From: Spirochaetaceae bacterium
GTDB taxonomy: Bacteria; Spirochaetota; Spirochaetia; DSM-2461
Reading direction: 5' to 3'
Length of the DNA: 64,000 nt
Assembly (NCBI GenBank): GCA_051531975.1
Contig: JAOPTT010000014.1
Span: forward strand, 32,001-96,000
Position 1 is the stretch's first letter. Each line of letters opens with the position of its first letter. Below are positions 4,668 to 60,756 of the stretch, piece after piece. A program made the position numbers and the translations under genes. The notes below the pieces were generated by a model. That model made no database searches. It saw nothing but the letters and a program-made list of their open reading frames with translations, and was not told the origin of the DNA.

Positions 4668-5975
4668 TTATTCAGGCCAACTGTTATCTATTTTTGTCAT
4701 AACTTTATCAAGATCCTGACCACTTACATAATCAACCATTCCAGTCCAGAATGAACCAGCACCAACAGCTCCTGGCATTAAATCTGAAGCGTCAAATCTA
4801 AATGTACTTGCATTAAGTAAAATCTCACCAATTTTTCTATCTGCTTCAGTAGGATACCAACCTAAATCAGCATCTTTATGTGGAGAGATAAATCCACCAG
4901 ATTTAACCCATTCTTTAGTAGAAGCACCTATTGTAAGGAATTTCATAACTTCTCTAACTTCTGGTCTGTCATTAAATGCACCATAAATATCACCGGCACC
5001 TAATACTGGTTTTCCATATTTTGGATCAATTGGTGGAAGATAGAAAAAGTCCATATCACCATCAACTAATTCCTGACCTTTTTTAGGGAAGAATGCAGGT
5101 ATAAAACTAGCTTGTCTATGTAGCCAAGCTTTTGGAGGAGTTGTTGTTAATGCAGTTGGTGCATCACCAAAAGGAACTGTTAATATAGAAGTTGTTCCAC
5201 CATATACATAATCTTTATTAAAAAAGATTTCTCCCATTTTTTTGGCAGCATATTTAACTTCTGGAGAGTTAAATGGTAATTCACCTTTTACCCACATGTC
5301 ATAATTTTTAGTGGAAGTAGTTCTTAACATAATATCTTCCATCCAGTCTGTTGCAACCCAACCAGTAGCACCAGAACTCTCTATTCCAATAGACCATGGG
5401 ATTTCACCATCTGCAACCATCTGGTCAGATAAAGCTAACATTTCGTCCCAAGTTTCAGGAACTTTATATCCTTTAGCATCAAAGGCTTTTTTAGGGTACC
5501 AAACTAAAGATTTAACATTTGCTCTGTACCAAACTCCTGCCATAATTCCATTTATAGTTGCCATTTGAAGCCAACTGTCAATATATTGTTCTTTTAGATA
5601 TGACATATCAAACCAATCATTCATATCTTGAACATGACCGTTTTCAACAAAGTCGCCTAAAATACCAGGTTGAGGGAATGCTGCAATATCAGGTGCATCT
5701 CCACCTTCAACACGTACTGTTACTAATGACTCAAAATCACCTGAACCTTCATAAACAATATCTATTCCAGTCTTCTCTTCAAATGCTACCATTGAAGCAA
5801 TAAATCTTTCTGCATCTACATCTACAAATGCACCAAAGATATTTACTGTTGTTCCAGCTAATGGCTTATTTGAATCAACCGGAGCTTTAACCTCTTGTTG
5901 TTCTTCTTTCTTACATCCGACTAATACCAATGCTAAAAAAGAAATCATCATTAACATTGAAATAATTTTCTTCAT
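4668..5975 (-). CDS. alpha-glucoside ABC transporter substrate-binding lipoprotein (AglE-like)
   Basis: Lipobox LVGC; PDIAAFPQPG, VKSLVWY, GATGWVATDWMED and FRFDASDLMPGAVG motifs. Confidence 0.88.
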   Translation of the reverse strand: MKKIISMLMMISFLALVLVGCKKEEQQEVKAPVDSNKPLAGTTVNIFGAFVDVDAERFIASMVAFEEKTGIDIVYEGSGDFESLVTVRVEGGDAPDIAAFPQPGILGDFVENGHVQDMNDWFDMSYLKEQYIDSWLQMATINGIMAGVWYRANVKSLVWYPKKAFDAKGYKVPETWDEMLALSDQMVADGEIPWSIGIESSGATGWVATDWMEDIMLRTTSTKNYDMWVKGELPFNSPEVKYAAKKMGEIFFNKDYVYGGTTSILTVPFGDAPTALTTTPPKAWLHRQASFIPAFFPKKGQELVDGDMDFFYLPPIDPKYGKPVLGAGDIYGAFNDRPEVREVMKFLTIGASTKEWVKSGGFISPHKDADLGWYPTEADRKIGEILLNASTFRFDASDLMPGAVGAGSFWTGMVDYVSGQDLDKVMTKIDNSWPE

Positions 5976-31910: not shown

Positions 31911-32037
31911 AAAACACTCCTTTTCAGCTATTTTATTCCAACTAAGGCTTTTATTTTTTTATAGTTCAACTACAGCTAAAAGTCAATTTATTAAAAATGT
32001 GTTGATTTTTTTAGAGATTTCTATAAATCTAAAATCT

Positions 32038-39635: not shown

Positions 39636-39796
39636 CATTAATCATTTATTTCAAATAAAATCCTACTATGCAGATGGGAAACCTTTTATTTTTACTACTT
39701 GTTAAATGTCTTAAGGTATTAAATAGTTAATAATAAGTAAAAAATCAATTTTATTTTACTTATGACTTTTCAGATAATATTATATAGTATATTATT

Positions 39797-39806
39797 TTGT
39801 ATACAA
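39797..39806. promoter_or_regulatory. GntR/FadR-type operator TTGTATACAA
   Basis: Perfect palindrome upstream of the glycerate kinase gene; recurs at 42282, 42348, 43174 and, with one mismatch, 52184. Confidence 0.75.
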
Positions 39807-39830
39807 TATATCGCATCCTCAGGAGACATT

Positions 39831-40967
39831 ATGAAGTTCTTAATAGCACCAGACTCTTTTAAAGGTTCATGTTCAAGTTTAGAAGCAGCAAATAGCATAG
39901 AGAAAGGGATTTTAAAAGTATTCCCTAATAGTCAAACAGTTAAATTATCAGTTGCTGATGGTGGAGAAGGAACAGTAGAGGCTATTTTACAAAGTTGTAA
40001 TGGAAAACTTATATATAAAACAGTTACAGGCCCAGACAATAACCCTGTAGAAGCATCTTATGGGATCCTACCTAATGGTACAGCAATTATAGAGATGGCA
40101 TCGGCGTCAGGTCTGCCTATAGTTCCAATTGAGAAACGGAATGCTCTTACAGCAACAACCAAAGGAACAGGTGAATTGATAATTTCAGCTATAGATAATG
40201 GTTGTACAAAAATTATTATCGGCTTAGGAGGTAGTGCAACAACAGATGGTGGTGTTGGTATGGCACAAGCCCTAGGTTACTCTTTTTTAGATGCCAATGG
40301 AAAAGAACTAGAAAATGGTGGAGGTGTTTTATCTGACCTTGTTAAAATATCAGATAAAAATATTGATTCAAGAATTACAGGTGTAGAATTTATAGCAGCA
40401 TGCGATGTAAATAATCCTCTATTTGGAAAGACAGGTGCTGCTTATATTTATGCCCCACAAAAGGCTGCAACAACTGATATGGTTAAACTATTAGACAGTG
40501 GTCTTATACATTTAGATTCAGTAGTAAAAGATACCTTAGGTGTTAATAATAGTAATACACTTGGAGCTGGAGCCGCTGGTGGATTAGGATTTGGTGTATT
40601 AACCTTCTGCAAAGGTATATTAAAATCTGGAATAACAACTGTTTTAGATGCCATAGAATTCGATAAACATCTAGAAGGTACAGATTTAGTGATAACTGGG
40701 GAAGGCCGAATTGATGGTCAGTCATTAAATGGAAAGGTGCCAGTGGGAATTGCAGAGAAAACAAAGTCTAAAAATATTCCTCTTTTAGTAATAGCTGGGG
40801 GAATAGGAGATAAAATAGATGAAGCCTATAAGCTAGGAATTGATAGTGTAATGTCCATTGTTAACTGCCCTATGCCACTAGAAGAAGCGATGAATAATAG
40901 TAAAGAGCTATTAACTGATTCAGCAGAACGGGCTATGAGAATGATAAAAATAGGAATGAATCTATAA
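39831..40967 (+). CDS. glxK: glycerate kinase (GlxK/GarK family)
   Basis: IAPDSFKGS, ADGGEGT, GGSATTDGG and TGEGRIDGQS motifs; AGGAG RBS before ATG 39831. Confidence 0.93.
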   Translation: MKFLIAPDSFKGSCSSLEAANSIEKGILKVFPNSQTVKLSVADGGEGTVEAILQSCNGKLIYKTVTGPDNNPVEASYGILPNGTAIIEMASASGLPIVPIEKRNALTATTKGTGELIISAIDNGCTKIIIGLGGSATTDGGVGMAQALGYSFLDANGKELENGGGVLSDLVKISDKNIDSRITGVEFIAACDVNNPLFGKTGAAYIYAPQKAATTDMVKLLDSGLIHLDSVVKDTLGVNNSNTLGAGAAGGLGFGVLTFCKGILKSGITTVLDAIEFDKHLEGTDLVITGEGRIDGQSLNGKVPVGIAEKTKSKNIPLLVIAGGIGDKIDEAYKLGIDSVMSIVNCPMPLEEAMNNSKELLTDSAERAMRMIKIGMNL

Positions 40968-41600
40968 GTCCTTTTGTGCTAAACGCTCTCTAGTTCGCCA
41001 ATGGTGTTCCATGAGCTTCTTTTGAGCTAAATGTACATCTTTATCCTTTATTGATTTAATAATATCCATATGTTCAGCAAGTGACTCTTCTGGAGGTCTA
41101 ATTAAACCTTGTTGATAACACCTAATTATAAACTCACACCTAGAAATGAAATCCAAAATCAACTGATTTCCAGACATTTTTAAAATTGATGAGTGAAATT
41201 CTTGGTCTTTTTTCTGGTATCTTTTATATTTAGATTCAGGAACTGGTAGCGAAAACTCATCAAAAAGAGTTAAAATCCTACCCCACTCTTTATCATTTAA
41301 CTTTTCCATGCATATGTGCAGAGCTGTGCCTTCTAAACCTGCCCTAACCTCAAAAAGTTCTATCATATCCTTATTTGTAAACACTTTAACATAGAGCTCT
41401 CTTCTCTCTCTCTGTTCAATTATTCCTTCGTTTATAAGTCTATTTAATGCTTCTGTAACAGGGGTTAAGCTGACATCTAACATAGCTGCTAACTCTTTCT
41501 TTTGAACCTTTTCTCCTGGTTTTAAATCTTTATTTAACAACATTTTTACAATCTGCTCATATACTAAGTCACTTAATATTTCTTTAGATATCATTTCCAT
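40962..41600 (-). CDS. GntR (FCD) family regulator
   Basis: LAAMLDVSLTPVTEAL HTH; DQEFH and EHMDII FCD motifs. Confidence 0.9.
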   Translation of the reverse strand: MEMISKEILSDLVYEQIVKMLLNKDLKPGEKVQKKELAAMLDVSLTPVTEALNRLINEGIIEQRERRELYVKVFTNKDMIELFEVRAGLEGTALHICMEKLNDKEWGRILTLFDEFSLPVPESKYKRYQKKDQEFHSSILKMSGNQLILDFISRCEFIIRCYQQGLIRPPEESLAEHMDIIKSIKDKDVHLAQKKLMEHHWRTRERLAQKDL

Positions 41601-41603
41601 AAT

Positions 41604-42239
41604 CTACCCCTTAACCCGGGCAAAACCATATTTAAGGTGTCTTAACATAACTTCCTCTGCTGCATCTGGGTCTCCACTAAAAATAGCCTCTGCAACTTTT
41701 TTATGACTATCTATACTAGACTTGAAATTTATATCCGATGCATTTTGATTACTTAAACTGATAATGTTATAAGAAGATAACATAGTACTTAACATATTAT
41801 TTTGACTCATTTCCATTATTTGTTTATGAAACTCATAATCATGATTATTAAACTCTGCAAAGTCACTACTTGATACTATATGAACTGCATCTAAAGCCAT
41901 ATCCAGTAGTTCTTTTTTTTGTTCTGAGGTTCCAAACTCAGCTGCCTTCCTTGCACCTAAAGGTTCTAAACGTAATCTAATATCAAATAGATTCAGTCTC
42001 TCCTCTTGGCTCATTTCATATATAAAAAATCCACGCCTAGGTATACTTTTAACTAACCACTCTTTTTCTAACTTAGAGAATGCAGATAATATTGGAGTTC
42101 TAGATACACCTAATTTTGATGCGATATCTTCTTGAACTAGTTTCTGCCCTGGAACTAACTCTCTATTTAAGATCATATCTTTTATACTTGTATATACTTT
42201 TTCTGTTAACCCTAGTGTTTCAACTTTATATTCTTTCAT
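41604..42239 (-). CDS. GntR (FCD) family regulator
   Basis: IASKLGVSRTPI HTH; DYEFH and SHKKV FCD motifs. Confidence 0.9.
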   Translation of the reverse strand: MKEYKVETLGLTEKVYTSIKDMILNRELVPGQKLVQEDIASKLGVSRTPILSAFSKLEKEWLVKSIPRRGFFIYEMSQEERLNLFDIRLRLEPLGARKAAEFGTSEQKKELLDMALDAVHIVSSSDFAEFNNHDYEFHKQIMEMSQNNMLSTMLSSYNIISLSNQNASDINFKSSIDSHKKVAEAIFSGDPDAAEEVMLRHLKYGFARVKG

Positions 42240-42279
42240 AAACTAAGTATGTAATTAAATTTGCTTGGCGTCAACGATG

Positions 42280-42357
42280 TTTTGTATACAAAATGATAAA
42301 AACAAAAAAATACTTATTGACAGCACATCTATTCCGTGTGTAATATATTGTATACAA
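42280..42357. promoter_or_regulatory. divergent promoter with two TTGTATACAA operators (42282-42291, 42348-42357) and a TTGACA -35 at 42317
   Basis: Read directly; the operators flank the promoter of the isomerase operon. Confidence 0.75.
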
Positions 42358-42379
42358 AATAATAAATAAGGATTAAACG

Positions 42380-43219
42380 TTGATTGGAGTTTCACCAGCA
42401 TTTTACATTTCTAAGAATACATCACATTTTACTGTCCAGGATCAAATAGATAGTATGAAATGGTTAAGTGACAATAATTTTAACTCTCTTCAACTAGAAG
42501 TCTTCCATTACGATCAGTTAGATCAGTGGACATTTAATAATTGTGTTAAACTCAAAGATTCATTAAGCGACAATGGACTTCAAGTTAGCCAGTTTGTAGC
42601 TCATTTTCTAATGAACTGTTTTGACAGTGTGGAGTCAATAAAGTCAGACAGTGGATTAGCCGAGTTAGAGTTTATCTCTGTTATTTTAAATAATTTTGAA
42701 CTCACTAAAACCATAACAGTTCCAGTTCCTGCTTTTGCTGGTGCAACTAATAACAGAGATATTCTCGATTTATTTGATAAAAAACTTAGCTTAATAGAAG
42801 CTATAGCAGTAAAACATAACCTAACTTTAGCTTTAGAGCCTCAACCAGGTAGTTTAGCAGCGGATCTAACATATCTTAAAAGGTTCGAGAATATTGGATT
42901 AAACCTAGATCCTGGCCATATTTCATGTAGTGGAATAGACCCATTTACATTAGGTTCTGATATTTTATCTAAGGTTAAAGCTACCCATCTATGCGAAAAT
43001 GATGGTATTAAGAATTTATCATTAAGACCTGGAAGTTTAGAATATAACTGGGCAGAATTAATAAATAATTTATTTGCTGCAGGGTATAAAGGATCTTTAG
43101 ATATAGAGATTATTTGTCCTGTAGAACAGGTTGAAGCTGAATACAGAAGTGGAAACTTTTTTTTAAGCACAATTTGTATACAAAATAACATATACAGTAA
43201 AGGAGTAATAAGAGTATGA
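42380..43219 (+). CDS. sugar-phosphate isomerase/epimerase family (AP-endonuclease-2 TIM barrel)
   Basis: ALEPQPG, GLNLDPGH, HLCEND and LDIEI metal-ligand motifs. Confidence 0.8.
   Translation: MIGVSPAFYISKNTSHFTVQDQIDSMKWLSDNNFNSLQLEVFHYDQLDQWTFNNCVKLKDSLSDNGLQVSQFVAHFLMNCFDSVESIKSDSGLAELEFISVILNNFELTKTITVPVPAFAGATNNRDILDLFDKKLSLIEAIAVKHNLTLALEPQPGSLAADLTYLKRFENIGLNLDPGHISCSGIDPFTLGSDILSKVKATHLCENDGIKNLSLRPGSLEYNWAELINNLFAAGYKGSLDIEIICPVEQVEAEYRSGNFFLSTICIQNNIYSKGVIRV
43174..43183. promoter_or_regulatory. internal TTGTATACAA operator
   Basis: Perfect copy in the 3' end of the first isomerase gene, 33 bp upstream of the next start. Confidence 0.6.
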
Positions 43220-44190
43220 GTAATCAGCCAAAATTTGGTTTAATAACCAGTTTCCTTGGGCAAACCCACGATAGGTTCCGTTCATATAATCAGCCTGCGA
43301 CAATTGAGGAAAAATTTACAATAATGCAGTCTTTATCAGATACTAATGGAGTAGAGCTTGTTTATCCATACGAGGTAAATGATGCCCCAAAAATTAAGTC
43401 TTTATTACCAAAGTATGGCTTAGAGATGGCTGCGGTTAATGTAAACATTAAAAAAGAAGATCTTTTTATTCACGGTAGTATTTCTAGTCCAGACAAGACA
43501 ATTAGAAAAGAAGCTGTACAGATGATTAAAGATGCAAAGGATTTCGCTGCAAATGTTGGTGCAGACAAAGTTCAATGTTGCCCATTAGGTGATGGATATG
43601 AGTATAGCTTTCAATCTGACTACTCAACTTCTTGGAAACATATTGTTGAATCTATAGAAGAAGCTGGAGCATATAAACCAGAGATTCCTCTATTTATAGA
43701 GTATAAACCTAATGAAATTAGAGGTAACTGTTTTATTAACAACGCTGCAAAAACACTTTGTCTTTTAAAAGATGTTGGAAACACAGCTGTTGGTACTACT
43801 TTAGATTTTGGTCACTCAATTTATGGTGGAGAAACTCCAGCAGAAGCACTTTGTCTATTAGCAGATAGTGATTACCCATACTATGTTCATATTAATGATA
43901 ATGACGGTAGATGGGATTGGGACTACATGTGTGGAACAAACCATTTTCAGCAATATGTAGAGTTTGTTTATTACTTAAAAAGATTTGGTTATAGCGACTA
44001 TTTAACATCTGATACATCCCCTACTCGGGTTGATATGAAAGAGTGTTTTGAAGCAAATGCCAGATGGACAAGAAAAATATGGGATCTATTAGACACTATG
44101 GATCTTAAACATCTAACTAGTCTTTTAAATCAGACTGATTTTATCAAGAACTGGAAATTTTTAGAAAAAGAACTCTATTTTAGAGGGTAA
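43216..44190 (+). CDS. xylose-isomerase-like TIM-barrel aldose-ketose isomerase
   Basis: FIEYKPNE, LDFGHS and HINDNDGRWDWD motifs. Confidence 0.8.
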   Translation: MSNQPKFGLITSFLGQTHDRFRSYNQPATIEEKFTIMQSLSDTNGVELVYPYEVNDAPKIKSLLPKYGLEMAAVNVNIKKEDLFIHGSISSPDKTIRKEAVQMIKDAKDFAANVGADKVQCCPLGDGYEYSFQSDYSTSWKHIVESIEEAGAYKPEIPLFIEYKPNEIRGNCFINNAAKTLCLLKDVGNTAVGTTLDFGHSIYGGETPAEALCLLADSDYPYYVHINDNDGRWDWDYMCGTNHFQQYVEFVYYLKRFGYSDYLTSDTSPTRVDMKECFEANARWTRKIWDLLDTMDLKHLTSLLNQTDFIKNWKFLEKELYFRG

Positions 44191-44242
44191 AAAAGCAATA
44201 CACAGACAGTATAGTCTGTTAATATATTTGAAGGAGATTATT

Positions 44243-45244
44243 ATGAAGAAATTGTTATTACTGGTAACATGTGTTTTAGTATCAGGAATTCTTTTTGCAG
44301 AGGGTCAGCAGGAATATCCTGCTAGAGACATCACTAACGTATTAGTTTGGGGTGCTGGTGGTGGAACCGACTCATGTAACCGTGTTGTAATGGCAGAAAT
44401 GTCTAAAGAACTAGGTGTTAACATCAATGTTGTTAATAAGCCTGGTGGTGTTGCCGGATCAGTTGGTATGGCTGATGCTTTCTCAAAAGAATCAGATGGT
44501 TATACTATCTGTGGTCTTTCTGAATCTTGTGTAACTTCTGCAGTTATGGGTGGATTTCACGAAAGAATGAATGTTTGGGACTTTTTTGTAATAGGTGGAT
44601 CTCCTGATGTACTTTCAGTAACTGCTGATGCTCCTTATAATACTATTGAAGAGTTAGTTGAATATGCTAAAGCAAACCCAGGAGAAATCCAGGCTGGCGC
44701 AGCTGGTGCAGGTTCAATTCACCACTTAAACTTATTAGCTTTAGAAAAAGGTACTGGTGCTGACTTTAACTTTATACCTTACGATGGTTCAGCTCCTGCT
44801 CAAAACGCTGCAATGACAGGTGAAATTACAGTAATTATTACTTCTGTTGCAGAGCAAGCTCAACTAATTAGAGGTGGAAAATTAAAGCCACTAGCTGTTT
44901 TAGTTCCAGATGCATTTGACCTTGACGGAATGATGTTACCATCAGCATTAAAAGCATACCCATCATTAAATGAAGTTTTACCAATAGGTCAAGCAATTGG
45001 TTTTGGTATTAAAAAAGATGCTGACCAGGCTATTAAAGATAAATTAACAGATGCATTTAAAGTTGCAATGAAATCAAAAGCTGTTCAAGACTTTGGTAAA
45101 AACAACTTTTATATTCTATCTGGTGCTTATGGTTCAGAAGCTGGAAAGATATTTGACGATTTAGAGTCAAACTTTGCATGGACTTTAGATGAACTAGGTT
45201 CAGCTAAAATTAGCCCTGCTTCTTTAGGGATTCCTAAACTTTAA
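44243..45244 (+). CDS. tctC: tripartite tricarboxylate transporter substrate-binding protein (TctC/Bug)
   Basis: Signal peptide; YP.RDIT, WGAGGGTD, NKPGG and DGYT motifs. Confidence 0.9.
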   Translation: MKKLLLLVTCVLVSGILFAEGQQEYPARDITNVLVWGAGGGTDSCNRVVMAEMSKELGVNINVVNKPGGVAGSVGMADAFSKESDGYTICGLSESCVTSAVMGGFHERMNVWDFFVIGGSPDVLSVTADAPYNTIEELVEYAKANPGEIQAGAAGAGSIHHLNLLALEKGTGADFNFIPYDGSAPAQNAAMTGEITVIITSVAEQAQLIRGGKLKPLAVLVPDAFDLDGMMLPSALKAYPSLNEVLPIGQAIGFGIKKDADQAIKDKLTDAFKVAMKSKAVQDFGKNNFYILSGAYGSEAGKIFDDLESNFAWTLDELGSAKISPASLGIPKL

Positions 45245-45273
45245 GAATCCCAAAACATAATAAATTCAATTTT

Positions 45274-45295
45274 GGATACCTCCTGGGAGGTATCC
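45274..45295 (+). terminator. GC-rich stem-loop after tctC
   Basis: GGATACCTCC-TG-GGAGGTATCC perfect inverted repeat. Confidence 0.7.
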
Positions 45296-45327
45296 TTATA
45301 TTAGAAATCTAGAGAGGAAACCTGGAA

Positions 45328-46074
45328 ATGGAAGAAAAAAAACTTCGACAATACGATTTTGTAACAGCCATTGGACTAATATTATTTAGTTTTTGGGAAC
45401 TTGCAGAAGCACTTAAAATGCCTATGAAGGAATCATATGGAGGAGTACAAAACGATTGGTATGTATCTCCTGCTCTTCTGCCTCTTTTTATCGGTCTAGG
45501 AATTCTGCTTTTAGGAACACTTTTATTAGTTAATGCAATAAAAAGTGGCGGTGCTAAATCATTTATTGATGCAGCTAAAGCTAGTTCAAACATGAAGTTA
45601 ACTGTGGAGACTAAAAGAGTTTTTACTACAGTATTAGCCCTATTTACATTTATATTTTTACTTATTCCAAATGTAGACTTTTTCCTGAGCATAATACTAT
45701 TTCTTTTTGTTATATGTTCAGCATTTCTACCAGATGAGGAAGAGTACAGAAAAATAATAAACGGACAATTAATTATTGCAGCTATCGTATTATCAGTAAT
45801 AGCTTTTACTGGTGTTGGCGACCTATTAAGGGGAGTATTTAAATATACACTTGATATTTTAGCTTTACTGTTTATTATCTACATTAATATTTATAGTCGT
45901 ATTAAAGCTAAGGGTTTTAACTTTTCCGCTAAAATTTTGAGAAAAATAACTATTATATCAATAATAGTTCCTTTAATACTTTGTCCATTATTTCGGTATT
46001 TTTTACTTGTACCGCTACCGGTTGAAGGTGGAATCATTAAACTAATGAACCTTCTTTATTACACAATAAGATAG
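45328..46074 (+). CDS. TctB-like membrane subunit (long form)
   Basis: WYVSPALLP and LLVPLP motifs, TM-rich; lies between tctC and tctA. Confidence 0.75.
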   Translation: MEEKKLRQYDFVTAIGLILFSFWELAEALKMPMKESYGGVQNDWYVSPALLPLFIGLGILLLGTLLLVNAIKSGGAKSFIDAAKASSNMKLTVETKRVFTTVLALFTFIFLLIPNVDFFLSIILFLFVICSAFLPDEEEYRKIINGQLIIAAIVLSVIAFTGVGDLLRGVFKYTLDILALLFIIYINIYSRIKAKGFNFSAKILRKITIISIIVPLILCPLFRYFLLVPLPVEGGIIKLMNLLYYTIR

Positions 46075-46087
46075 GCAGGGAGGTCAT

Positions 46088-47638
46088 ATGGAATTTTTAG
46101 AACCGTTACAGGTATTTTTAGTTAATATAGGTGGATTAATAACTAATCCAGTTTCCATGCTGATTCTTTTTGGATCTGTTATTATGGGTATCGTATTTGG
46201 AGCAACACCAGGATTAACAGCAACTTTAGGTGTAGCATTATTAACAACATTAACATATGGAATGGATGTTTCAACAGCAATGGTTGCCCTAATGGGTATT
46301 TACGTTGGTGGAGTTTATGGTGGTAGTTATACTGCGATATTAGTAAACATTCCAGGAACAGCAGCATCGGCTGCAACAGCATTAGATGGATATCCACTAG
46401 CCTTAAAAGGCCAAGCTGGACGAGCACTTGGTTTAACTACTACTTCATCAGCTATTGGAACAGTTATTGGAATGGTATTTGTTGTACTTCTATCTCCGAT
46501 AATCTCCGCTTTAGCACTTGAGTTTACATCCTTTGAGTTCTTTTTACTTGCACTTTTTGGTATTGTAATTAGTGGAACTTTAACCAGTCAAGATTTAGTT
46601 TACAAAGGTTGGATCGCAGGACTTATAGGTCTATGGTTTTCAACAATTGGTCGAGATAGTCTACAGTTCTTCCCAAGATATACTTTTGGAATGAATGAAT
46701 TAGAAGGTGGTTTAGACCTTGTACCTGTTCTTATTGGTGCATTTGGTATACCACAAATAATGCAGACAATTAGAGACAATTTTAAAATAAAAGAGACAAA
46801 AAAGTTTAAAAGAATATTACCTGAGATTGGTACAATAGTAAAAAATACTCCATCTATAATTAGATCATCTTTAATAGGTGTTGGTATTGGAGCTGTTCCA
46901 GGAATCGGGGAAGATATAGCAGGTTGGGTATCATACGGTGCGGCCAAAAAAGCTAGTAAACACCCAGAAGAATTTGGTAAAGGTTCAGTAGAAGCTGTAA
47001 TATCAACTGAGACAGCTAATAATGCATGTATTGGTGGAGCAATGATTCCTCTATTAAACTTAGGAATTCCAGGAAGTCCTCCAGCAGCAATGTTATTAGG
47101 TGCTTTTATGTTACATGGTATACAACCTGGTCCCATGTTAAGTATTGATAGACCTACATTTGTTTTAGAGATAACTGCAATTTTACTACTAGCATCCATT
47201 ACGATGTGGGTATGTGGAATGTTATTAACTAAACAAGTTATTAAGGTTTTAAAAATACCAACATCCCTATTTATGCCAATAATTGCAGTACTTTGTGTAA
47301 TTGGTTCATATGCACTTGGAATGAGAATTTTTAACCTATACTTAATGTTACCTATAGGAATAATAGCTTACTTATTATCCGAAATGAAATATCCAATTGC
47401 CCCACTAATAATTGGAGTAATACTTGGAGATATGTGTGACCAAAACCTTAGAAGAGCATTAATGGTTTCTAAAGGAAGTTTCATGCCAGTACTTACTAGG
47501 CCAGTGTCGTTAGTATTAGTAATAATAATTTTAGTACTAATTGCAGGACAGATTCCATTCTTTCAGAGATTACAGAAAACAATGAAAGATAAGTTTATGT
47601 CTATGTTTAGCAGAAAGGTTAAAACAGAAGAAGCTTAA
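46088..47638 (+). CDS. tctA: tripartite tricarboxylate transporter permease TctA
   Basis: GATPGL, NIPGT, DGYPLA, ETANNA and LGIPGS motifs. Confidence 0.93.
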   Translation: MEFLEPLQVFLVNIGGLITNPVSMLILFGSVIMGIVFGATPGLTATLGVALLTTLTYGMDVSTAMVALMGIYVGGVYGGSYTAILVNIPGTAASAATALDGYPLALKGQAGRALGLTTTSSAIGTVIGMVFVVLLSPIISALALEFTSFEFFLLALFGIVISGTLTSQDLVYKGWIAGLIGLWFSTIGRDSLQFFPRYTFGMNELEGGLDLVPVLIGAFGIPQIMQTIRDNFKIKETKKFKRILPEIGTIVKNTPSIIRSSLIGVGIGAVPGIGEDIAGWVSYGAAKKASKHPEEFGKGSVEAVISTETANNACIGGAMIPLLNLGIPGSPPAAMLLGAFMLHGIQPGPMLSIDRPTFVLEITAILLLASITMWVCGMLLTKQVIKVLKIPTSLFMPIIAVLCVIGSYALGMRIFNLYLMLPIGIIAYLLSEMKYPIAPLIIGVILGDMCDQNLRRALMVSKGSFMPVLTRPVSLVLVIIILVLIAGQIPFFQRLQKTMKDKFMSMFSRKVKTEEA

Positions 47639-47685
47639 TACAACACAATAAAACTAAATTAAACAGAATATCTCAGGAGTAAATT

Positions 47686-48522
47686 ATGAATAATAATGAA
47701 AAGACAATCGAGCTACGTCTAAAAGCTAAAGAGCTTCGAACAACAACATTAAAAATGATACATAAAGCTGGTTCAGGACATCCTGGAGGTTCTTTATCAG
47801 CTGCAGATTTTATGACTGCGTTATATTTTAATGAATTAAATATTAGACCAGAAGAGCCTAATTGGGCAGATAGAGATCGGTTTGTTCTATCAAAAGGTCA
47901 TGTTTGCCCTATTTTATACTCTTCTTTGGCTCTAAAAGGATATTTCCCATATAAAACAATTTATACATTAAGGGTTCAAGGTTCCATTTTACAAGGTCAC
48001 CCTGATATGAAAGTTTGTCCAGGTATTGATATTAGCACTGGGTCTTTAGGGCAAGGTTTATCAACTGCTGTAGGAATGGCATTAGCTGCTAAAAGAGATG
48101 GTAAAGATTATAGGGCATTCTGTGTAGTTGGGGATGGTGAGTGTAACGAAGGTCAGATTTGGGAAGCTGTTATGACTGCTGTTAAATACGAGTTAGATAA
48201 CTTAGTTATTATTGTAGATAACAACAACTTACAAAATGATAATTCATGTGATGTTGTAATGCCTACAGGTGACCTTAAAGGTAAGTTTGAAGCCTTTGGA
48301 TGTGAGTCTTTTGATATAGATGGTCATGATATGGCGGAAATATTGGATACATTAGATAAAATTAGAGCAAGCAAAGTAAAAGCTCCTAAATGTATTGTTG
48401 GTAAAACTGTAAAAGGTAAAGGTGTATCTTTTATGGAGAATGTTGTTGGATGGCATGGAATGGCTCCTAACGATGAGCAACTAGCAATAGCACTAAAAGA
48501 GATAAACGAGGTAGAAGTATGA
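47686..48522 (+). CDS. split transketolase, N-terminal (TPP-binding) subunit
   Basis: SGHPGGSLS, DRFVLSKGH, TGSLGQG and GDGECNEG motifs. Confidence 0.93.
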   Translation: MNNNEKTIELRLKAKELRTTTLKMIHKAGSGHPGGSLSAADFMTALYFNELNIRPEEPNWADRDRFVLSKGHVCPILYSSLALKGYFPYKTIYTLRVQGSILQGHPDMKVCPGIDISTGSLGQGLSTAVGMALAAKRDGKDYRAFCVVGDGECNEGQIWEAVMTAVKYELDNLVIIVDNNNLQNDNSCDVVMPTGDLKGKFEAFGCESFDIDGHDMAEILDTLDKIRASKVKAPKCIVGKTVKGKGVSFMENVVGWHGMAPNDEQLAIALKEINEVEV

Positions 48523-49463
48523 GTGGAAAAGCAACTAGAGAAGCGTACGGTGAAGCGATATTAGAATTAGGAAAGGCAAATCCAGATATATATATAGTAG
48601 ATGCAGATATTGGTAAATCATGTAAAACTACTGCATTTTTTGAGCAGTTACCTAGACAACATATAAACGTTGGAATTGCAGAGCAAAACTGTTGTGGTGT
48701 AGCCGCTGGTTTAGCAACAACAGGTAAAATTCCATTTGTAACTACATATGCAGTATTTGGTAGTATGAGAATGGTTGAACAAATAAGACAAGAAGTTTGT
48801 TATCCTAAATTAAATGTTAAAATAGCATGTTCACATGGCGGATTTACTCCTGCAAGTGATGGTGCAAGCCACCAAGCTATTGAAGATATGGGTATTTTAA
48901 GAACTATTCCAGGTATGACAGTTATTATGCCTGCAGACTACTACTCTGCTAAAAAATTAGTTCATGCTGCTGCGAAAATGCATGGTGCTGTTTATTTAAG
49001 ATTTACTAGAGACCCAATACCATTTATCTACCCAGAAGATGCTGAGTTTGAAATTGGTAAAGCGGTTGAATTAAAGAAAGGTTCTGATCTTGCAATTATA
49101 GCTAATGGAGATATTATGTCTATTGCTGTTAAAGCTGCTGGAGAGCTAGAGAAACAAGGGGTATCAGTTAGAGTATTAGATATGCATACAATAAAACCAC
49201 TAGATGAAGATGCTGTGAACAGAGCAATTGATGAGTGTGGTAAAATAATTACTGTTGAAGACCACAATATTTTAAATGGTTTAGGTAGTGCAGTATGCGA
49301 AATTGTAGCTGAACGTGGTAAAGGTAAAGTAAAACGTGTAGGAATCCAAGATAAATTTGGAGAGTCTGCACCATATGAGTATCTACTTGGTATTAATGGT
49401 ATTACTATCGGGAATATAGTAAAATCTGCCCAAGAGATGCTTAAACAGAGAGGTAAACAGTGA
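48519..49463 (+). CDS. split transketolase, C-terminal subunit
   Basis: GIAEQN, DGASHQAIED and TIKPLD motifs. Confidence 0.93.
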   Translation: MSGKATREAYGEAILELGKANPDIYIVDADIGKSCKTTAFFEQLPRQHINVGIAEQNCCGVAAGLATTGKIPFVTTYAVFGSMRMVEQIRQEVCYPKLNVKIACSHGGFTPASDGASHQAIEDMGILRTIPGMTVIMPADYYSAKKLVHAAAKMHGAVYLRFTRDPIPFIYPEDAEFEIGKAVELKKGSDLAIIANGDIMSIAVKAAGELEKQGVSVRVLDMHTIKPLDEDAVNRAIDECGKIITVEDHNILNGLGSAVCEIVAERGKGKVKRVGIQDKFGESAPYEYLLGINGITIGNIVKSAQEMLKQRGKQ

Positions 49464-50416
49464 AAATAGTAGTACTAGATGGTTATTCATTAAATCCTGG
49501 TGATCTATCCTGGGATGGATTTAAAAGCCTAGGAGATTTTGTCTGTTACGACAGAACAGAGATAAAAGATATATTAGCAAGAATTGGCAATGCTGAAATT
49601 GTAATTACAAATAAAACACCCTTAGGTGCAGAAATAATTTCAGCATGTCCAAAGCTAAAATACATTGGTGTTTTAGCAACAGGATATAATGTTGTTGATG
49701 TAAAAGCTGCAACAGATAATAGTGTAACGGTTTGTAACATCCCAACTTATGGTACAGCTGCAGTAGGGCAATTTGTTTTTGCTCTACTTCTAAATATTTG
49801 TCACCATGTACAAGATCATAGTGATGCTGTTAAAAAAGGACAGTGGACTAGTTCCCCTGATTTTTGCTTTTGGAATTATCCATTAACAGAGTTAGCAGGT
49901 AAAACTTTGGGTATAATTGGTTATGGTAGAATTGGGCAATCTACAGGTAAAATTGCTCAGGCTTTTGGTATGAATGTTATCGCATTCGATGCATATCATA
50001 ATAAAGATTTAGTTTGCGATACAATGAAGTATGGAACATTAGATGATCTATTAAAACAATCTGATGTTATATCACTTCATTGTCCACTATTTGAATCTAC
50101 GGTCGGTATAATAAACAAAGATAGCATAGCTAAAATGAAGGATGGAGTTATTATTATAAATACATCTAGAGGGCCTTTAATTGTAGAGGATGATTTAGCT
50201 GTAGCTCTTAAAAGTGGTAAAGTTAGAGCTGCTGGTTTAGATGTTGTATCAACTGAACCAATAACTTCTGAAAACGTACTACTTAATATAGAGAACTGTT
50301 TTATTACACCACATATTGCTTGGGCTCCTATTGAAGCTCGAGATAGACTAATGAACATAGCTGTAGATAATCTTAAATGTTTTATCGATGGTAATAATCA
50401 AAATAGTGTAAACTAA
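49460..50416 (+). CDS. D-2-hydroxyacid dehydrogenase (glycerate dehydrogenase / hydroxypyruvate-glyoxylate reductase family)
   Basis: LDGYSLNPGDLSW, GYGRIG, INTSRG and TPHIAWA motifs. Confidence 0.9.
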   Translation: MKIVVLDGYSLNPGDLSWDGFKSLGDFVCYDRTEIKDILARIGNAEIVITNKTPLGAEIISACPKLKYIGVLATGYNVVDVKAATDNSVTVCNIPTYGTAAVGQFVFALLLNICHHVQDHSDAVKKGQWTSSPDFCFWNYPLTELAGKTLGIIGYGRIGQSTGKIAQAFGMNVIAFDAYHNKDLVCDTMKYGTLDDLLKQSDVISLHCPLFESTVGIINKDSIAKMKDGVIIINTSRGPLIVEDDLAVALKSGKVRAAGLDVVSTEPITSENVLLNIENCFITPHIAWAPIEARDRLMNIAVDNLKCFIDGNNQNSVN

Positions 50417-50438
50417 TATAGATCAAAAATATCCTATG

Positions 50439-50463
50439 GAGGACTTGTTATAAACAAGTCCTC
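50439..50463 (+). terminator. intrinsic terminator of the isomerase-TTT-transketolase operon
   Basis: GAGGACTTGTT-ATA-AACAAGTCCTC followed by TTCTATTT. Confidence 0.8.
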
Positions 50464-50565
50464 TTCTATTTATAACATAGTTATTTACATATAAAATAAA
50501 AAATTGTTTCAATTTTTCTATATTCAGTGTGATAATAGAAAACAGAAATTAAAGGATGTATTACT

Positions 50566-51072
50566 ATGTATGATACTCGTAATGAAATATGGAATTCTAC
50601 TTGGAACTCATATTATGATACTTTTTATCAAGAGTTATTAGCTGAAGAATTAGAAGTTAGATGGAAGCGATTTGATGACATATCTAGAATTCTTATAGCA
50701 ATTACCGCATCAACCTCTGCTATATCTGGTTGGGCACTATGGAGTAATAAAGACTTCAAAATTATTTGGGTTTTTCTTGCAGCAATCGGCGCATTACTTT
50801 CTTTAGTTACGAAATCATTAGATATTCCCAGGAGAATATCCGATTGGAATGATTCAAAAAAATATTTCACAACACTTAGAATTGATTACCAAATTTTTTT
50901 AGATGAACTAGGGTTTAATCCCGAATTTTCTACTATCGATGCAACCGTAACAGTTCGTAATCTCAGACTAAGATATGCTGAAGGTTATAAGGAGATGCTT
51001 AATGATTCCTTCATAACTCAGAAACTTAAAATCATGATACAAGATAGTGTTAACAATAACATGAAACAATAG
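50566..51072 (+). CDS. two-TM helical membrane protein, SLATT-like architecture
   Basis: N-terminal helix, two TM segments (ILIAITASTSAISGWALW; IIWVFLAAIGALLSLV) and a helical C-terminus; AAAGGA RBS. Confidence 0.6.
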   Translation: MYDTRNEIWNSTWNSYYDTFYQELLAEELEVRWKRFDDISRILIAITASTSAISGWALWSNKDFKIIWVFLAAIGALLSLVTKSLDIPRRISDWNDSKKYFTTLRIDYQIFLDELGFNPEFSTIDATVTVRNLRLRYAEGYKEMLNDSFITQKLKIMIQDSVNNNMKQ

Positions 51073-51097
51073 TATACTTATAGTAAGGAGTAATAAA

Positions 51098-51172
51098 ATG
51101 GGAATCAAATCAGGACCACCAAAACCAAAGCCATCACCACCACCTAGACCAATGCCATCATCATCTAAATAA
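51098..51172 (+). CDS. 24-aa proline-rich micropeptide MGIKSGPPKPKPSPPPRPMPSSSK
   Basis: Strong RBS TAAGGAG 7 nt before the ATG; below the ORF-track size cutoff. Confidence 0.6.
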   Translation: MGIKSGPPKPKPSPPPRPMPSSSK

Positions 51173-51199
51173 AAATCACAAAAACATCCTGCTCTAATT

Positions 51200-52156
51200 T
51201 TATATTAATGATAATAGAATATATAAAATAGGAACTGTATAAATTAAAGTACCCATTGTAAATAGCCAGGAAGTATTAGATAAGTCTATATCTAGATCGT
51301 AAACAGTTGGCGGAACTAAGGATGCAAACCCTGAAGGCATAGCTGATAAAATAAGTATAACTTTAATAACTAAGCCATTCTCCAAAGTATTTAATCCAAG
51401 TAACATTGCTATGGAAAATATTATAGTAGGAACCATTAAAGATTTAATTACAGCAATGGCAATACTATTTCTATAATGTCTTTTTATACTGGTAAAGTGA
51501 AACGCCATTCCTATTGATAACAGAAGCAAAACAGTTGCTCCAGTAATCAAGAAACTATTTAAAGATGCATACCATCCAGGCCTAACAGCTCCAGAAAAAT
51601 TAAGAATAAGACCAATTGTAATCGCAGTTAACATAGACATGATAAAAGGATCTTTAAAAATAGCTTTTAGCCTACTCTCCTTCTCTCCAACATGATCAGA
51701 ATATGATTTAGCAACTGGAAAGCCAATACCATAATTTACGAGCTCTTCAAATAGTTTATATAGTGGAACAATACTAAAACCAGGTTCTCCTAAAAAGAAA
51801 AATACAATAATCCCACCTACAGAACCTATATTAGTAAAAGCTCCAGAAGTTATTAACGAACCAGTCTGCTTTCGACCTATCCCCTTAGCTTTACAATATA
51901 TAAAAGCTAAAAAACCACCAGTAATAATAGCTGTGGCTCCAACAAATGGGATACTTATTATTTTCAGATCTTTTAATGGAGTTATCCATACAGCACCTAA
52001 AAATGCTATAGGGTTTAATAACTGTAATGCTACTCTTTGTAATACGATTCTAATCTTTTTTAAGCTTCCGATTTTTTTATTGAAGATTCTACCAAATAAG
52101 TAACCAGCAACAAGACTTAAAAATATCAATAATAGTGGTGATAAAAATGATTTCAT
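51200..52156 (-). CDS. AEC (auxin efflux carrier / malate permease) family transporter
   Basis: About 10 TM segments; FTNIGSVG and LSAMPSG motifs. Confidence 0.8.
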   Translation of the reverse strand: MKSFLSPLLLIFLSLVAGYLFGRIFNKKIGSLKKIRIVLQRVALQLLNPIAFLGAVWITPLKDLKIISIPFVGATAIITGGFLAFIYCKAKGIGRKQTGSLITSGAFTNIGSVGGIIVFFFLGEPGFSIVPLYKLFEELVNYGIGFPVAKSYSDHVGEKESRLKAIFKDPFIMSMLTAITIGLILNFSGAVRPGWYASLNSFLITGATVLLLLSIGMAFHFTSIKRHYRNSIAIAVIKSLMVPTIIFSIAMLLGLNTLENGLVIKVILILSAMPSGFASLVPPTVYDLDIDLSNTSWLFTMGTLIYTVPILYILLSLI

Positions 52157-52183
52157 AATCAATTATATCCAGTACTAAATATT

Positions 52184-52193
52184 TTGTATACAG
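52184..52193. promoter_or_regulatory. TTGTATACAG operator (one mismatch) upstream of the AEC transporter gene
   Basis: Near match to the four perfect boxes. Confidence 0.55.
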
Positions 52194-59724: not shown

Positions 59725-60756
59725 ATGAATGTAATTTTTTACGATTCAAAACAGTATGATATAGACTCATTCACAAACGAAAACAGGGACTTTGGGTATA
59801 AATTAAAGTTCCTTGATTTTAAACTCACAATAGAATCAGCAGAACTTGCTAAAGGTTACGATGTTGTATGTGTATTTGTAAACGACATAGTTACTGAAGA
59901 AATTATTAGTAGGTTACATGAGCTAGGTGTAAAAATGATTGCTCTAAGATGTGCTGGTTATAATAATGTAGACTTTGAGAGTGCATTTGAAAAAGTTCAT
60001 ATCGCCAGAGTTCCAGCCTACTCCCCATATGCTGTAGCAGAACATGGTATGGCACTAATAATGACTCTAAATAGAAAAACTCATAAAGCATATAACAGAA
60101 CCAAAGAGAGTAACTTTAACATTGGTGGTCTTGTTGGTTTTGATCTATATGGAAAAAACATTGGTGTTATTGGTACAGGTAAAATTGGACAAAAGTTCAT
60201 AAACATTGCCAACGGTTTTGGTATGAATGTACTAGCCTACGACAAGTTTCCAAATAAAGATCTAGATGTAACATATACAGATTTAGATACACTGTATAAA
60301 GAGTCCGATATTATCTCTCTGCACTGTCCACTTTTAAAAGATACAGAACATTTAATAAACAAAGATAGTATAGATAAGATGAAAGATGGTGTAATGATAA
60401 TAAATACTTCCCGGGGTGGTTTAATTAAAGCTAAAGATCTTATTCGAGGTTTAAAAACCAGGAAAATAGGTAGTGCTGGATTAGATGTATACGAAGAGGA
60501 AGCAAAATACTTTTTCGAAGACTTTTCAGATGACATGGTTAAGGACGATATTTTAGCTAGACTTTTATCATTTCCAAATGTATTAGTTACAAGTCATCAA
60601 GCTTTTTTAACAAAAGAAGCTCTAAAAAATATAGCTAATACAACATTAAATAATATTAAAAGTTTTAGTTTAGGCCAGGATGAGTACAATGAAATATGTT
60701 ACAATTGCAAACACAAAGCAACCTGTCCTAAAAAAAATGGTAAAGGTTGTTTCTAG
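59725..60756 (+). CDS. ldhA: D-lactate dehydrogenase
   Basis: RCAGYNNVD, VPAYSPYAVAEH, GTGKIG and TSHQAFLT motifs. Confidence 0.9.
   Translation: MNVIFYDSKQYDIDSFTNENRDFGYKLKFLDFKLTIESAELAKGYDVVCVFVNDIVTEEIISRLHELGVKMIALRCAGYNNVDFESAFEKVHIARVPAYSPYAVAEHGMALIMTLNRKTHKAYNRTKESNFNIGGLVGFDLYGKNIGVIGTGKIGQKFINIANGFGMNVLAYDKFPNKDLDVTYTDLDTLYKESDIISLHCPLLKDTEHLINKDSIDKMKDGVMIINTSRGGLIKAKDLIRGLKTRKIGSAGLDVYEEEAKYFFEDFSDDMVKDDILARLLSFPNVLVTSHQAFLTKEALKNIANTTLNNIKSFSLGQDEYNEICYNCKHKATCPKKNGKGCF

Follow-up and report, generated by a model that had tools for sequence, protein, structure and literature searches.

Among the described routes for breaking down unusual sugars, one that resembles the system considered here in its logic is the sulfo-transketolase (sulfo-TK) pathway, in which a transketolase acts on a sulfonated, unphosphorylated ketose, and which comprises the FucI-like SqvD, the split transketolase SqwGH, the RpiB-type SqwI, and the iron alcohol dehydrogenase SqwF (PMC9594981). 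Here we describe a comparable locus of a marine spirochete, located at positions 39,797 to 52,193 of a 64,000-nucleotide stretch of DNA (the window; positions 32,001 to 96,000 of contig JAOPTT010000014.1, assembly GCA_051531975.1), which encodes two TIM-barrel isomerases (iso1 and iso2), a tripartite tricarboxylate transporter (TTT; TctCBA), a split transketolase, and a D-2-hydroxyacid dehydrogenase. On balance, we read the locus as a regulon, repressed by FCD-type GntR regulators, that degrades an imported, carbonyl-bearing sugar acid by a kinase-free transketolase route. Each step of this route is inferred, and we hold the reading with slightly more belief than doubt.

In the proposed route, TctCBA would import the acid and iso2 would shift its carbonyl so that the product ends in a HOCH2-CO- (ketol) group. 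Most likely, this product is a four-carbon-backbone beta-keto acid, either 3-oxo-tetronate or a hydroxymethyl-branched relative. The dedicated split transketolase would move the ketol C2 unit from this unphosphorylated donor to glyceraldehyde-3-phosphate to form xylulose-5-phosphate; the dehydrogenase would reduce the 2-oxo acid left over, for which hydroxypyruvate is favored and glyoxylate possible; and the glycerate kinase GlxK would phosphorylate D-glycerate for entry into glycolysis. Meanwhile, iso1 may adjust stereochemistry or widen the substrate range, and an AEC-family carrier may move an acid in or out.

The likeness to sulfo-TK, drawn in a first-pass annotation of this DNA, holds at the level of pathway logic: both would use a split transketolase on an unphosphorylated ketose that has a distal anion in the role of the phosphate group, pass a C2 unit to glyceraldehyde-3-phosphate, and reduce the anionic leftover, all without a sugar kinase. 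It fails at the level of isomerase and reductase families, which differ from those of SqvD, SqwI, and SqwF, since the isomerases here are PF01261 TIM barrels and the reductase is a D-2-hydroxyacid dehydrogenase. Furthermore, the anion here is probably a carboxylate, uptake is through a TTT system, no glycosidase is present, and part of the leftover is probably kept as glycerate rather than excreted. A sulfosugar or sulfonate pathway, namely a sulfo-TK variant equipped with a TTT importer, would share the split transketolase and the missing kinase, and a TauE-family gene does stand beside the cluster in one relative (L014). Yet the families of SqwI (PF02502), SqwF (PF00465), SqvB (PF16161), the FucI-like SqvD, and sulfoquinovosidase are all absent from 39.7-52.2 kb by Pfam search, the pairing of a 2-oxo-acid reductase with glycerate kinase fits carboxylates, and a separate sulfo-TK-like cluster exists elsewhere in the genome, all of which makes this variant most improbable. 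That separate cluster (L101, G000:C9:259000-278900) encodes a ROK regulator, an ABC sugar importer, GH31, DUF4867 (the SqvB family, PF16161), a split transketolase with a TktC in which two catalytic positions are non-canonical, RpiB (PF02502), an aldehyde dehydrogenase, a two-subunit ADP-forming CoA ligase, and a DASS carrier. It is probably a sulfo-TK cluster, matching the sulfoacetate-forming variant set out in PMC9594981.

A second point of comparison is offered by the four-carbon acid-sugar pathways, which employ Ltn2D/Den2D, OtnI, 3OtnK, and 3OtnC (Zhang 2016, via PMC12994016 and PMC13753588). DUF1537 kinases act on 3-oxo-tetronate and related acids with a four-carbon backbone, and 3-oxo acids decarboxylate readily (PMC13753588, PMC12994016). 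As in those pathways, an acid transporter is combined here with a TIM-barrel isomerase that would lead to a 3-oxo acid, and sister loci continue with a DUF1537 kinase and then an enzyme that would yield dihydroxyacetone phosphate. In contrast to those pathways, the enzymes are non-orthologous, with a xylose isomerase-like iso2 that is no OtnI equivalog and a low-scoring sister kinase; the sister loci hold a PF01116 aldolase in the place of 3OtnC; and the window has a transketolase and a reductase replacing kinase and decarboxylase. In the D-apionate oxidative routes, the hub compound 3-oxo-isoapionate is either phosphorylated by a DUF1537 kinase or decarboxylated to erythrulose, which then passes to a Dak-type kinase and an RpiB-type isomerase (PMC13753588). 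Transketolase is also known to cleave unphosphorylated 5-keto-D-gluconate to L-threo-tetruronate, albeit in vitro and as a weak side reaction of housekeeping enzymes on a "non-native" substrate in tartrate formation (PMC13527115). There, as proposed here, transketolase takes an unphosphorylated keto sugar acid and leaves an aldehydo acid, but the enzyme here is a dedicated paralogue inside a regulated catabolic operon.

The D-apiose transketolase route, reportedly set out by Carter and colleagues in 2018, is said to proceed through ApsI, AplK, and AptAB, and it requires an apulose kinase. A transketolase dedicated to an unusual plant sugar is common to both systems; however, the only carbohydrate kinase family in the window is that of glycerate kinase, no ApnO-like oxidoisomerase of the D-apionate type occurs in these loci, and uptake here is of an acid. 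Our literature search, in which Carter 2018 and Zhang 2016 were represented by later papers, found no account that joins a TTT or TRAP transporter, this isomerase, and transketolase. The route would be a novel variation on types of pathway already known.

The operon and its enzymes

The host genome is 5.46 Mb in size, spans 29 contigs, and is 98.5% complete, and its nearest relatives carry the source names Spirochaetales or Oceanispirochaeta; the window itself is AT-rich (approximately 31% G+C). Among the sequencing runs listed for this DNA there is no RNA run, and one DNA run may be the source sample itself. Genes in the window were called by Pfam and NCBIfam profile searches, which confirmed every gene of the first-pass annotation (isomerases, TTT, split transketolase, dehydrogenase, glxK, and AEC). 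The plus strand from 42380 to 50416 is a single operon, iso1-iso2-tctCBA-tktN-tktC-dehydrogenase, with 4-bp overlaps in three gene pairs (iso1/iso2, tktN/tktC, and tktC/dehydrogenase) and gaps of 13-83 bp in the others. It opens with iso1 (42380-43219; AP_endonuc_2, E 2e-12) and iso2 (43216-44190; AP_endonuc_2, E 8e-23) and continues with tctC for the solute-binding protein (44228-45244; Pfam TctC, E 3e-30), tctB for the small membrane subunit (45328-46074; Pfam TctB), and tctA for the large one (46088-47638; Pfam TctA, E 2e-137). The last genes are tktN, encoding the N-terminal, thiamine diphosphate-binding transketolase subunit (47686-48522; Transketolase_N, E 2e-53), tktC, encoding the C-terminal, pyrimidine-binding subunit (48519-49463), and the dehydrogenase gene (49460-50416; 2-Hacid_dh_C, E 5e-58). 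A hairpin is predicted downstream of tctC (45274-45295), and a terminator-like hairpin on the plus strand (50438-50464), with a 12-bp stem and a T-rich tail after it, closes the operon.

The transketolase displays the split layout, with Transketolase_N on one gene and Transket_pyr plus Transketolase_C on the next. Because the genome encodes three full-length and three split transketolases, the operon enzyme is an extra, dedicated paralogue. All 37 related loci compared keep the TktC residues R7, S34, E55, H106, D114, H118, and R164 without exception (37 of 37), and the key positions (all of these but S34) match those of the full-length transketolases of the genome, whereas the two other split paralogues deviate. 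We take these positions, by their mapping to Escherichia coli residues, to be the cofactor-activating glutamate, the catalytic histidine and aspartate, and the anion-binding arginine. By its sequence the operon transketolase is predicted to be competent, with conserved positions that would fit a glyceraldehyde-3-phosphate acceptor and are silent on donor phosphorylation. The third split transketolase of the genome (L102, G000:C2:451000-470900) has a TktC without the first anion-binding arginine and the catalytic aspartate, and is found beside a class III aminotransferase, a glyoxalase-family protein, and a flavin oxidoreductase.

The dehydrogenase matches NF005069 best among NCBIfam models (310 bits against a cut-off of 448) and falls under the cut-offs of other named reductases, including glyoxylate reductase (205 against 455) and GhrB (172 against 492). 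It is closest to uncharacterized family members; among solved structures 5tx7 comes first, followed by phosphoglycerate/glycerate dehydrogenases and glyoxylate reductases, and it is assigned, by similarity, as a putative D-2-hydroxyacid dehydrogenase of the glyoxylate/hydroxypyruvate reductase neighborhood. The glycerate kinase gene glxK (39831-40967, plus strand, in an open reading frame (ORF) that opens at 39762) has a Gly_kinase match (E 8e-141) spanning residues 26-396 of the ORF from 39762 and scores 447 bits with TIGR00045 (cut-off 168). By tblastn, it is single-copy and the only glycerate kinase found in the genome, where a MOFRL-type glycerate kinase query gave no match. The first-pass claim that the locus lacks a sugar kinase was borne out: carbohydrate kinase families other than glycerate kinase are absent from the 59 non-overlapping window ORFs of at least 100 aa, and a search of the genome, which is 98.5% complete, gave no DUF1537 (PF07005) match.

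The predicted signature enzyme of the system is iso2, which appears to be a two-metal isomerase resembling xylose isomerase. Where solved xylose isomerases have their metal and catalytic residues, iso2 has aligned EYKPNE, DFGH, DWD, and SD motifs; E162, K164, D197, H200, D234, D236, and D266, which we presume to be the metal ligands and catalytic lysine, align with motifs of 1bxb and 1did, and these seven residues are invariant in 15 family members. The nearest solved relative is the uncharacterized "putative sugar isomerase" 3ktc (E 2e-39; 1.9e-45 with a profile). Although the family is large, with 1806 homologues and 396 confirmed stretches in species genomes (one genome per species), a protein atlas places iso2 only in generic "sugar phosphate isomerase/epimerase" clusters. 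One cultured carrier is Oceanispirochaeta crateris, with an iso2 that is 77% identical. Identity with several named enzymes was ruled out: iso2 scores 24.6 bits with the 2-oxo-tetronate isomerase (OtnI) model NF043033 (cut-off 325), 57 bits with the D-xylose isomerase (XylA) model TIGR02631 (cut-off 447), and far under the cut-offs for hydroxypyruvate isomerase and IolO.

Profile searches match iso1, which has no NCBIfam match, to MJ1311, IolI, D-tagatose 3-epimerases, and UlaE. An AlphaFold model (pLDDT 94.8) gives UlaE and ketose 3-epimerases as top Foldseek hits. Residues E153, D177, H203, and E243 are invariant in 20 sequences and form an E-D-H-E tetrad that we take to be the defining mark of the family. 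From sequence and model together, iso1 is probably a single-metal TIM barrel of the ketose 3-epimerase/IolI kind, and it is predicted to be an accessory epimerase or isomerase since it is present in just 20 of 80 related loci (described below); it is absent from 33 of the 47 that have transketolase.

Operator and regulators

Two genes for FCD-type GntR regulators, each with GntR and FCD domains, lie on the minus strand upstream of the operon and divergently oriented to it (a, 40962-41600; b, 41604-42239). The pair is kept beside the cluster in spirochete loci, with regulator b 57-72% identical in L002, L003, L005-L007, and L011-L016. A putative operator, TTGTATACAA, occurs exactly at 39797, 42282, 42348, and 43174 and with one mismatch at 52184; with up to one mismatch allowed, the window contains 15 sites where 6.7 are expected, and no shuffle reached 15. 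A longer 14-mer form, TTTTGTATACAAAA (exact GTATAC core, up to one mismatch), has seven sites in the 5.46-Mb genome, five of them in this 12.4-kb locus. The other two, at C2:598634 and at C3:69305 (the latter before a Gfo/Idh/MocA gene), were not counted as regulon members because two sites fall within a rough, composition-based estimate of approximately five one-mismatch sites for this AT-rich genome.

The five local sites are distributed over the promoter of the operon (two), iso1, glxK, and the AEC gene (one each). The two promoter copies (42282-42291 and 42348-42357) flank a promoter-like arrangement of TTGACA, 18 nt, and TAATAT (42317-42346), and the third copy (43174-43183) is within the 3' end of iso1, just before iso2. 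Before glxK, the copy at 39797-39806 (14-mer TTTTGTATACAATA from 39795) immediately follows a -10-like hexamer and is 25-34 nt upstream of the glxK start codon at 39831, while the one-mismatch copy at 52184-52193 overlaps a -35-like hexamer before the AEC gene. Both the two copies in the spacer between gntR and iso1 and the copy at the iso1 end are kept in L011-L016, whose genomes range from 35 to 54% G+C. In the nearest relative (L011), operators are found at 4855 before glxK (4895) and at 16489 before AEC; three Desulfobacterota loci have one-mismatch versions before gntR; and in two genomes of another genus (G005 and G010) an exact palindrome is located approximately 125 nt upstream of glxK, on a different contig from the cluster. 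The earlier proposal that glxK and AEC share the operator of the operon is thus upheld by the local sites, their L011 equivalents, and the G005/G010 glxK sites.

Similar operators are not confined to this cluster. A second set of FCD-GntR and TctCAB, preceded by the near-identical operator TATTGTATACAAAA, is present in G010 (L124, C2:845000-855000), G005 (L125), and G011 (L112), with a divergent PdxA-family gene adjoining it in L124, and it may be a paralogous regulon that serves a different acid. In a genome of the same genus as the host (L122, G003:C4:1-4188), an exact operator lies 26 nt before the gene for a 773-aa protein with a weak Transketolase_N match; the contig is just 4.2 kb long, and the protein has no close homologue in the genome of the window.

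Related loci and their lower modules

For comparison, we took the best-scoring 80 of the 396 iso2 stretches, each with at most 10 kb of flank on either side, which derive from Spirochaetota, Desulfobacterota, Syntrophales, Acidobacteriota, and others. Features were counted by blastp within 8 kb of iso2 (E ≤1e-20, at least 60% query coverage), any kinase being DUF1537, Dak1, or FGGY; a full-flank subset comprises the 51 loci whose flanks each measure 6 kb or more, 29 of which have transketolase. Gene orders reveal a constant upper part of GntR, transporter, and iso2, joined to a lower module that comes in several kinds. A TTT or TRAP transporter is near iso2 in 72 of the 80 loci (50/51 full-flank) and transketolase in 47/80, accompanied by the dehydrogenase in 35/80 (25/51) and by any kinase in 10/80 (6/51). 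A DUF1537 kinase without transketolase is found in 17/80 (14/51) and Dak1 without transketolase in 5/80 (4/51), and 11/80, mostly on short contigs (4/51), have neither transketolase nor any of the three kinase families.

The lower modules are distinct in content. One, that of the window, pairs the split transketolase with the D-2-hydroxyacid dehydrogenase. Another contains a DUF1537 kinase (25/80 loci), with a PanB-family gene in 18 of the 25 and a PF01116 class II aldolase in eight; the kinase scores 56 bits with the D-threonate kinase model (cut-off 450). Desulfopila aestuarii DSM 18488 and Desulfamplus magnetovallimortis are cultured species with this kinase/PanB module. The PanB-family gene follows the kinase in L027, L037, L038, L043, L089, and 13 further loci and passes panB cut-offs, and in five of five genomes tested the operon copy is a second, lower-scoring PanB. 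A further module comprises another TIM barrel, RpiB, Dak1, and Dak2, and a beta-keto-acid cleavage enzyme is encoded in eight loci, seven with transketolase. In a maximum-likelihood tree of iso2 from a quick search, loci with different modules are intermingled, with at least six changes of the transketolase label forced by well-supported branches and 13 by parsimony; the window's iso2 falls in a spirochete clade with transketolase in 12 of 13 rows. This repeated swapping of lower modules suggests that one iso2 product feeds them all. A further acid-sugar cluster is found in a related spirochete (L098, G021:C2:2926000-2945900), where a TRAP transporter and three TIM barrels of PF01261, of which one shares 32% identity with iso2, accompany a PF00596 class II aldolase, a full-length transketolase, and TpiA-like and LarA-like proteins, and no sugar kinase is among the 11 annotated ORFs around the cluster.

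The first-pass annotation had envisaged an undescribed sugar-acid transketolase pathway, and the survey supports a conserved, uncharacterized system for acid sugars, with a transketolase branch that is mostly kinase-free: 23 of the 29 full-flank transketolase loci lack a DUF1537, Dak, or FGGY kinase within 8 kb. It had also asked whether orthologous clusters usually hold a sugar kinase: 25 of 80 have DUF1537, but 17 of those 25 have it in place of transketolase. These counts bear on an ordinary phosphorylated route, in which a kinase encoded elsewhere, or the GlxK-family enzyme itself, would supply transketolase with a phosphorylated donor. Such a route would accord with a transketolase that keeps every phosphate-binding position, with a GlxK that scores under equivalog cut-offs, and with the co-occurrence of DUF1537 kinase and transketolase in some loci. 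Those positions, however, are needed in any case for glyceraldehyde-3-phosphate and xylulose-5-phosphate, the glycerate kinase family score is far above its cut-off, and the kinases are missing both from most full-flank transketolase loci and, for DUF1537, from the genome, so that we consider the phosphorylated route quite improbable.

The dehydrogenase is strictly tied to transketolase: all 35 occurrences are in transketolase loci, and none is in the 33 loci without transketolase. Likewise, all eight glycerate kinases (one GlxK and seven MOFRL-type) are in transketolase loci and none in those 33. As the dehydrogenase is needed only together with transketolase, and an enzyme that prepares the substrate would serve every module, it most simply acts on what transketolase leaves behind. 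Given that its family reduces 2-oxo acids, the leftover would be glyoxylate or hydroxypyruvate, and the glycerate kinase in the regulon favors hydroxypyruvate. The joint linkage fits an acid leftover that is reduced and then, as glycerate, phosphorylated.

A contrary arrangement would place the dehydrogenase at the entry, where it would oxidize an imported aldonate (threonate, erythronate, or ribonate) at C2; iso2 would then act in the manner of OtnI and OrnI, relocating the keto group of C2 to C3, and the resulting 3-oxo acid would be cleaved, or decarboxylated to a neutral ketose such as erythrulose for transketolase. Dehydrogenase-isomerase routes to 3-oxo acids, with spontaneous decarboxylation, are indeed described for C4 acids and D-ribonate (PMC13753588, PMC12994016), L-threonate and D-erythronate both carry the 2R hydroxyl, and the scheme would be redox-neutral if the same enzyme also reduced glyoxylate. 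Nevertheless, absence from all 33 loci that keep the same transporter and iso2 without transketolase means that the dehydrogenase is not a general entry enzyme. Moreover, were the donor a neutral ketose, the leftover would be glycolaldehyde or glyceraldehyde, neither of which is a substrate of a 2-oxo-acid reductase, and iso2 is no OtnI equivalog. We judge the aldonate scheme unlikely.

The imported acid, its carriers, and neighboring genes

Because the modules without transketolase have no dehydrogenase beside iso2 in their gene orders (e.g., L027 and L039), the imported acid is probably the substrate of iso2 itself, already bearing an aldehyde or keto group. The alternative lower modules (DUF1537, beta-keto-acid cleavage, and Dak/RpiB) in turn suggest that iso2 most probably makes a beta-keto acid that ends in a ketol group. 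A beta-keto-acid cleavage enzyme requires a beta-keto acid, and the Dak/RpiB/TIM-barrel set looks, by analogy, like the erythrulose branch of D-apionate and D-ribonate routes. This evidence favors an acid with a four-carbon backbone over a hexuronate.

The first-pass annotation had put forward a uronate. In the hexuronate version of that scheme, the acid would be isomerized to a keto-uronate, from which transketolase would remove C2 twice, with an isomerization in between, leaving glyoxylate to be reduced to glycolate and exported by AEC. The presence of two isomerases with one transketolase, a Desulfobacterota dehydrogenase whose nearest model is glyoxylate reductase (224 bits against 455), an AEC gene under the common operator, and the known cleavage of a keto-hexonate to a tetruronate (PMC13527115) are all compatible with such a scheme. 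On the other hand, iso1 is missing from most transketolase loci, glycolate formation would leave the regulon's glycerate kinase unexplained, DUF1537 kinases are described for four-carbon-backbone acids (PMC13753588, PMC12994016), and the beta-keto-acid cleavage and Dak/RpiB modules better fit a beta-keto acid with a C4 backbone. The two-round hexuronate scheme is thus the least consistent with the modules, and we deem it decidedly unlikely. Export of glycolate by AEC is not specifically supported, as AEC is found in 12 of the 80 loci, eight with transketolase and four without. What stands of the earlier interpretation is its outline, namely a kinase-free, transketolase-based route in which an acid leftover is reduced and glycerate phosphorylated; the uronate substrate and glycolate export are conjectural details.

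Several smaller acids are candidates. A C4 carbonyl acid (tetruronate or 2-oxo-tetronate) would give glyoxylate but would account for none of glycerate kinase, the PanB paralog, and RpiB. A linear C5 keto-uronate would give tartronate semialdehyde, which iso1 might turn into hydroxypyruvate; its candidacy is weakened in that it is not a beta-keto acid and that iso1 is so often missing from transketolase loci. As a more specific and still doubtful proposal, the hub may be the hydroxymethyl-branched 3-oxo-isoapionate or a close analogue, which transketolase would split directly into a C2 unit, recovered as xylulose-5-phosphate, and hydroxypyruvate, which would pass through D-glycerate to GlxK. 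In sister loci, the same hub could be phosphorylated by the DUF1537 kinase, lose its branch to tetrahydrofolate via the PanB paralog, and be decarboxylated by the class II aldolase to dihydroxyacetone phosphate, or alternatively be decarboxylated to erythrulose for the Dak/RpiB module. This hub would account for the strict co-occurrence of reductase and glycerate kinase with transketolase, the second PanB copy, the erythrulose-type module together with the beta-keto-acid cleavage enzyme, and an apiosidase-like gene beside the cluster in L014. A weak point is that we know of no natural source for the imported precursor, which would be an aldehydo or 2-oxo isomer. The apiosidase-like gene (PF13204) is a single case: with the TauE-family gene, it lies directly upstream of the GntR pair in this Oceanispirochaeta locus (L014:5235-7638).

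Several points weigh against the proposal of a kinase-free transketolase regulon as a whole. The 80 loci are the best of 396 and many are close kin, so that the counts describe a sample and not independent events, and eight of the 47 transketolase loci (8/80; 6/51 full-flank) do have a DUF1537 kinase. The MOFRL kinases of Syntrophales-type loci follow SSF, PIG-L, and hydrolase genes and may belong to a neighboring operon, and the spirochete and the 381-aa Desulfobacterota dehydrogenases are only 30-35% identical, their common role being our deduction. The GlxK scores under the 2-kinase/3-kinase equivalog cut-offs (358 against 686), so that its substrate could be some hydroxy acid other than glycerate. 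The glxK site in G005 and G010 could belong to a paralogous regulator, because a similar operator precedes the second GntR-TctCAB cluster in these genomes. Finally, to our knowledge, a carbonyl-bearing C4 or branched C5 acid is not an abundant nutrient.

Should the kinase-free transketolase route hold true, this kind of cleavage would not be peculiar to sulfosugars but would represent a general, ATP-saving way for anaerobes to use anionic sugars, and a function would be assigned to a widespread orphan isomerase family. The joining of one upper module of transporter and isomerase to at least three interchangeable lower modules provides a clear test bed. Within one lower module, the PanB paralog may perform a new folate-dependent de-branching step; a folate-dependent role for PanB in sugar-acid breakdown would itself be new. 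If the hub is indeed 3-oxo-isoapionate, transketolase would be doing with a carboxylate what it does with apulose-4-phosphate, and branched sugars of the apiose type would have a fifth route, one that needs no kinase. More broadly, the system points to an unrecognized sugar-acid nutrient in anoxic sediments and soils.

As for the carriers, the TctC, TctB, and TctA families are all represented on adjacent genes, so that the TTT set is complete; wherever matched in related loci, TctC is 56-83% and TctA 61-89% identical. Identity is low between TctC, or the TRAP binding proteins encoded in sister loci, and their solved relatives; the nearest TRAP entries may be binders of D-erythronate or pantoate. 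Elsewhere in the genome (L103, G000:C2:138000-157900), a paralogous TctCBA (TctA 44% and TctC 42% identical) stands beside a DctP-type binding protein, a sensor histidine kinase, and AraC-type regulators. The AEC-family carrier gene (51200-52162, minus strand; Pfam Mem_trans and TIGR00946, both weak) is convergent with the operon, and its product is 64% identical in L011, where the gene comes directly after the dehydrogenase gene. In the window, the interval between the operon terminator and AEC contains a weakly SLATT-like 168-aa gene (50566-51072) and a short ORF rich in proline (51099-51170). Another D-2-hydroxyacid dehydrogenase, which shares 39% identity with the operon enzyme, is encoded 9 kb downstream at 59725-60756, without a copy of the operator.

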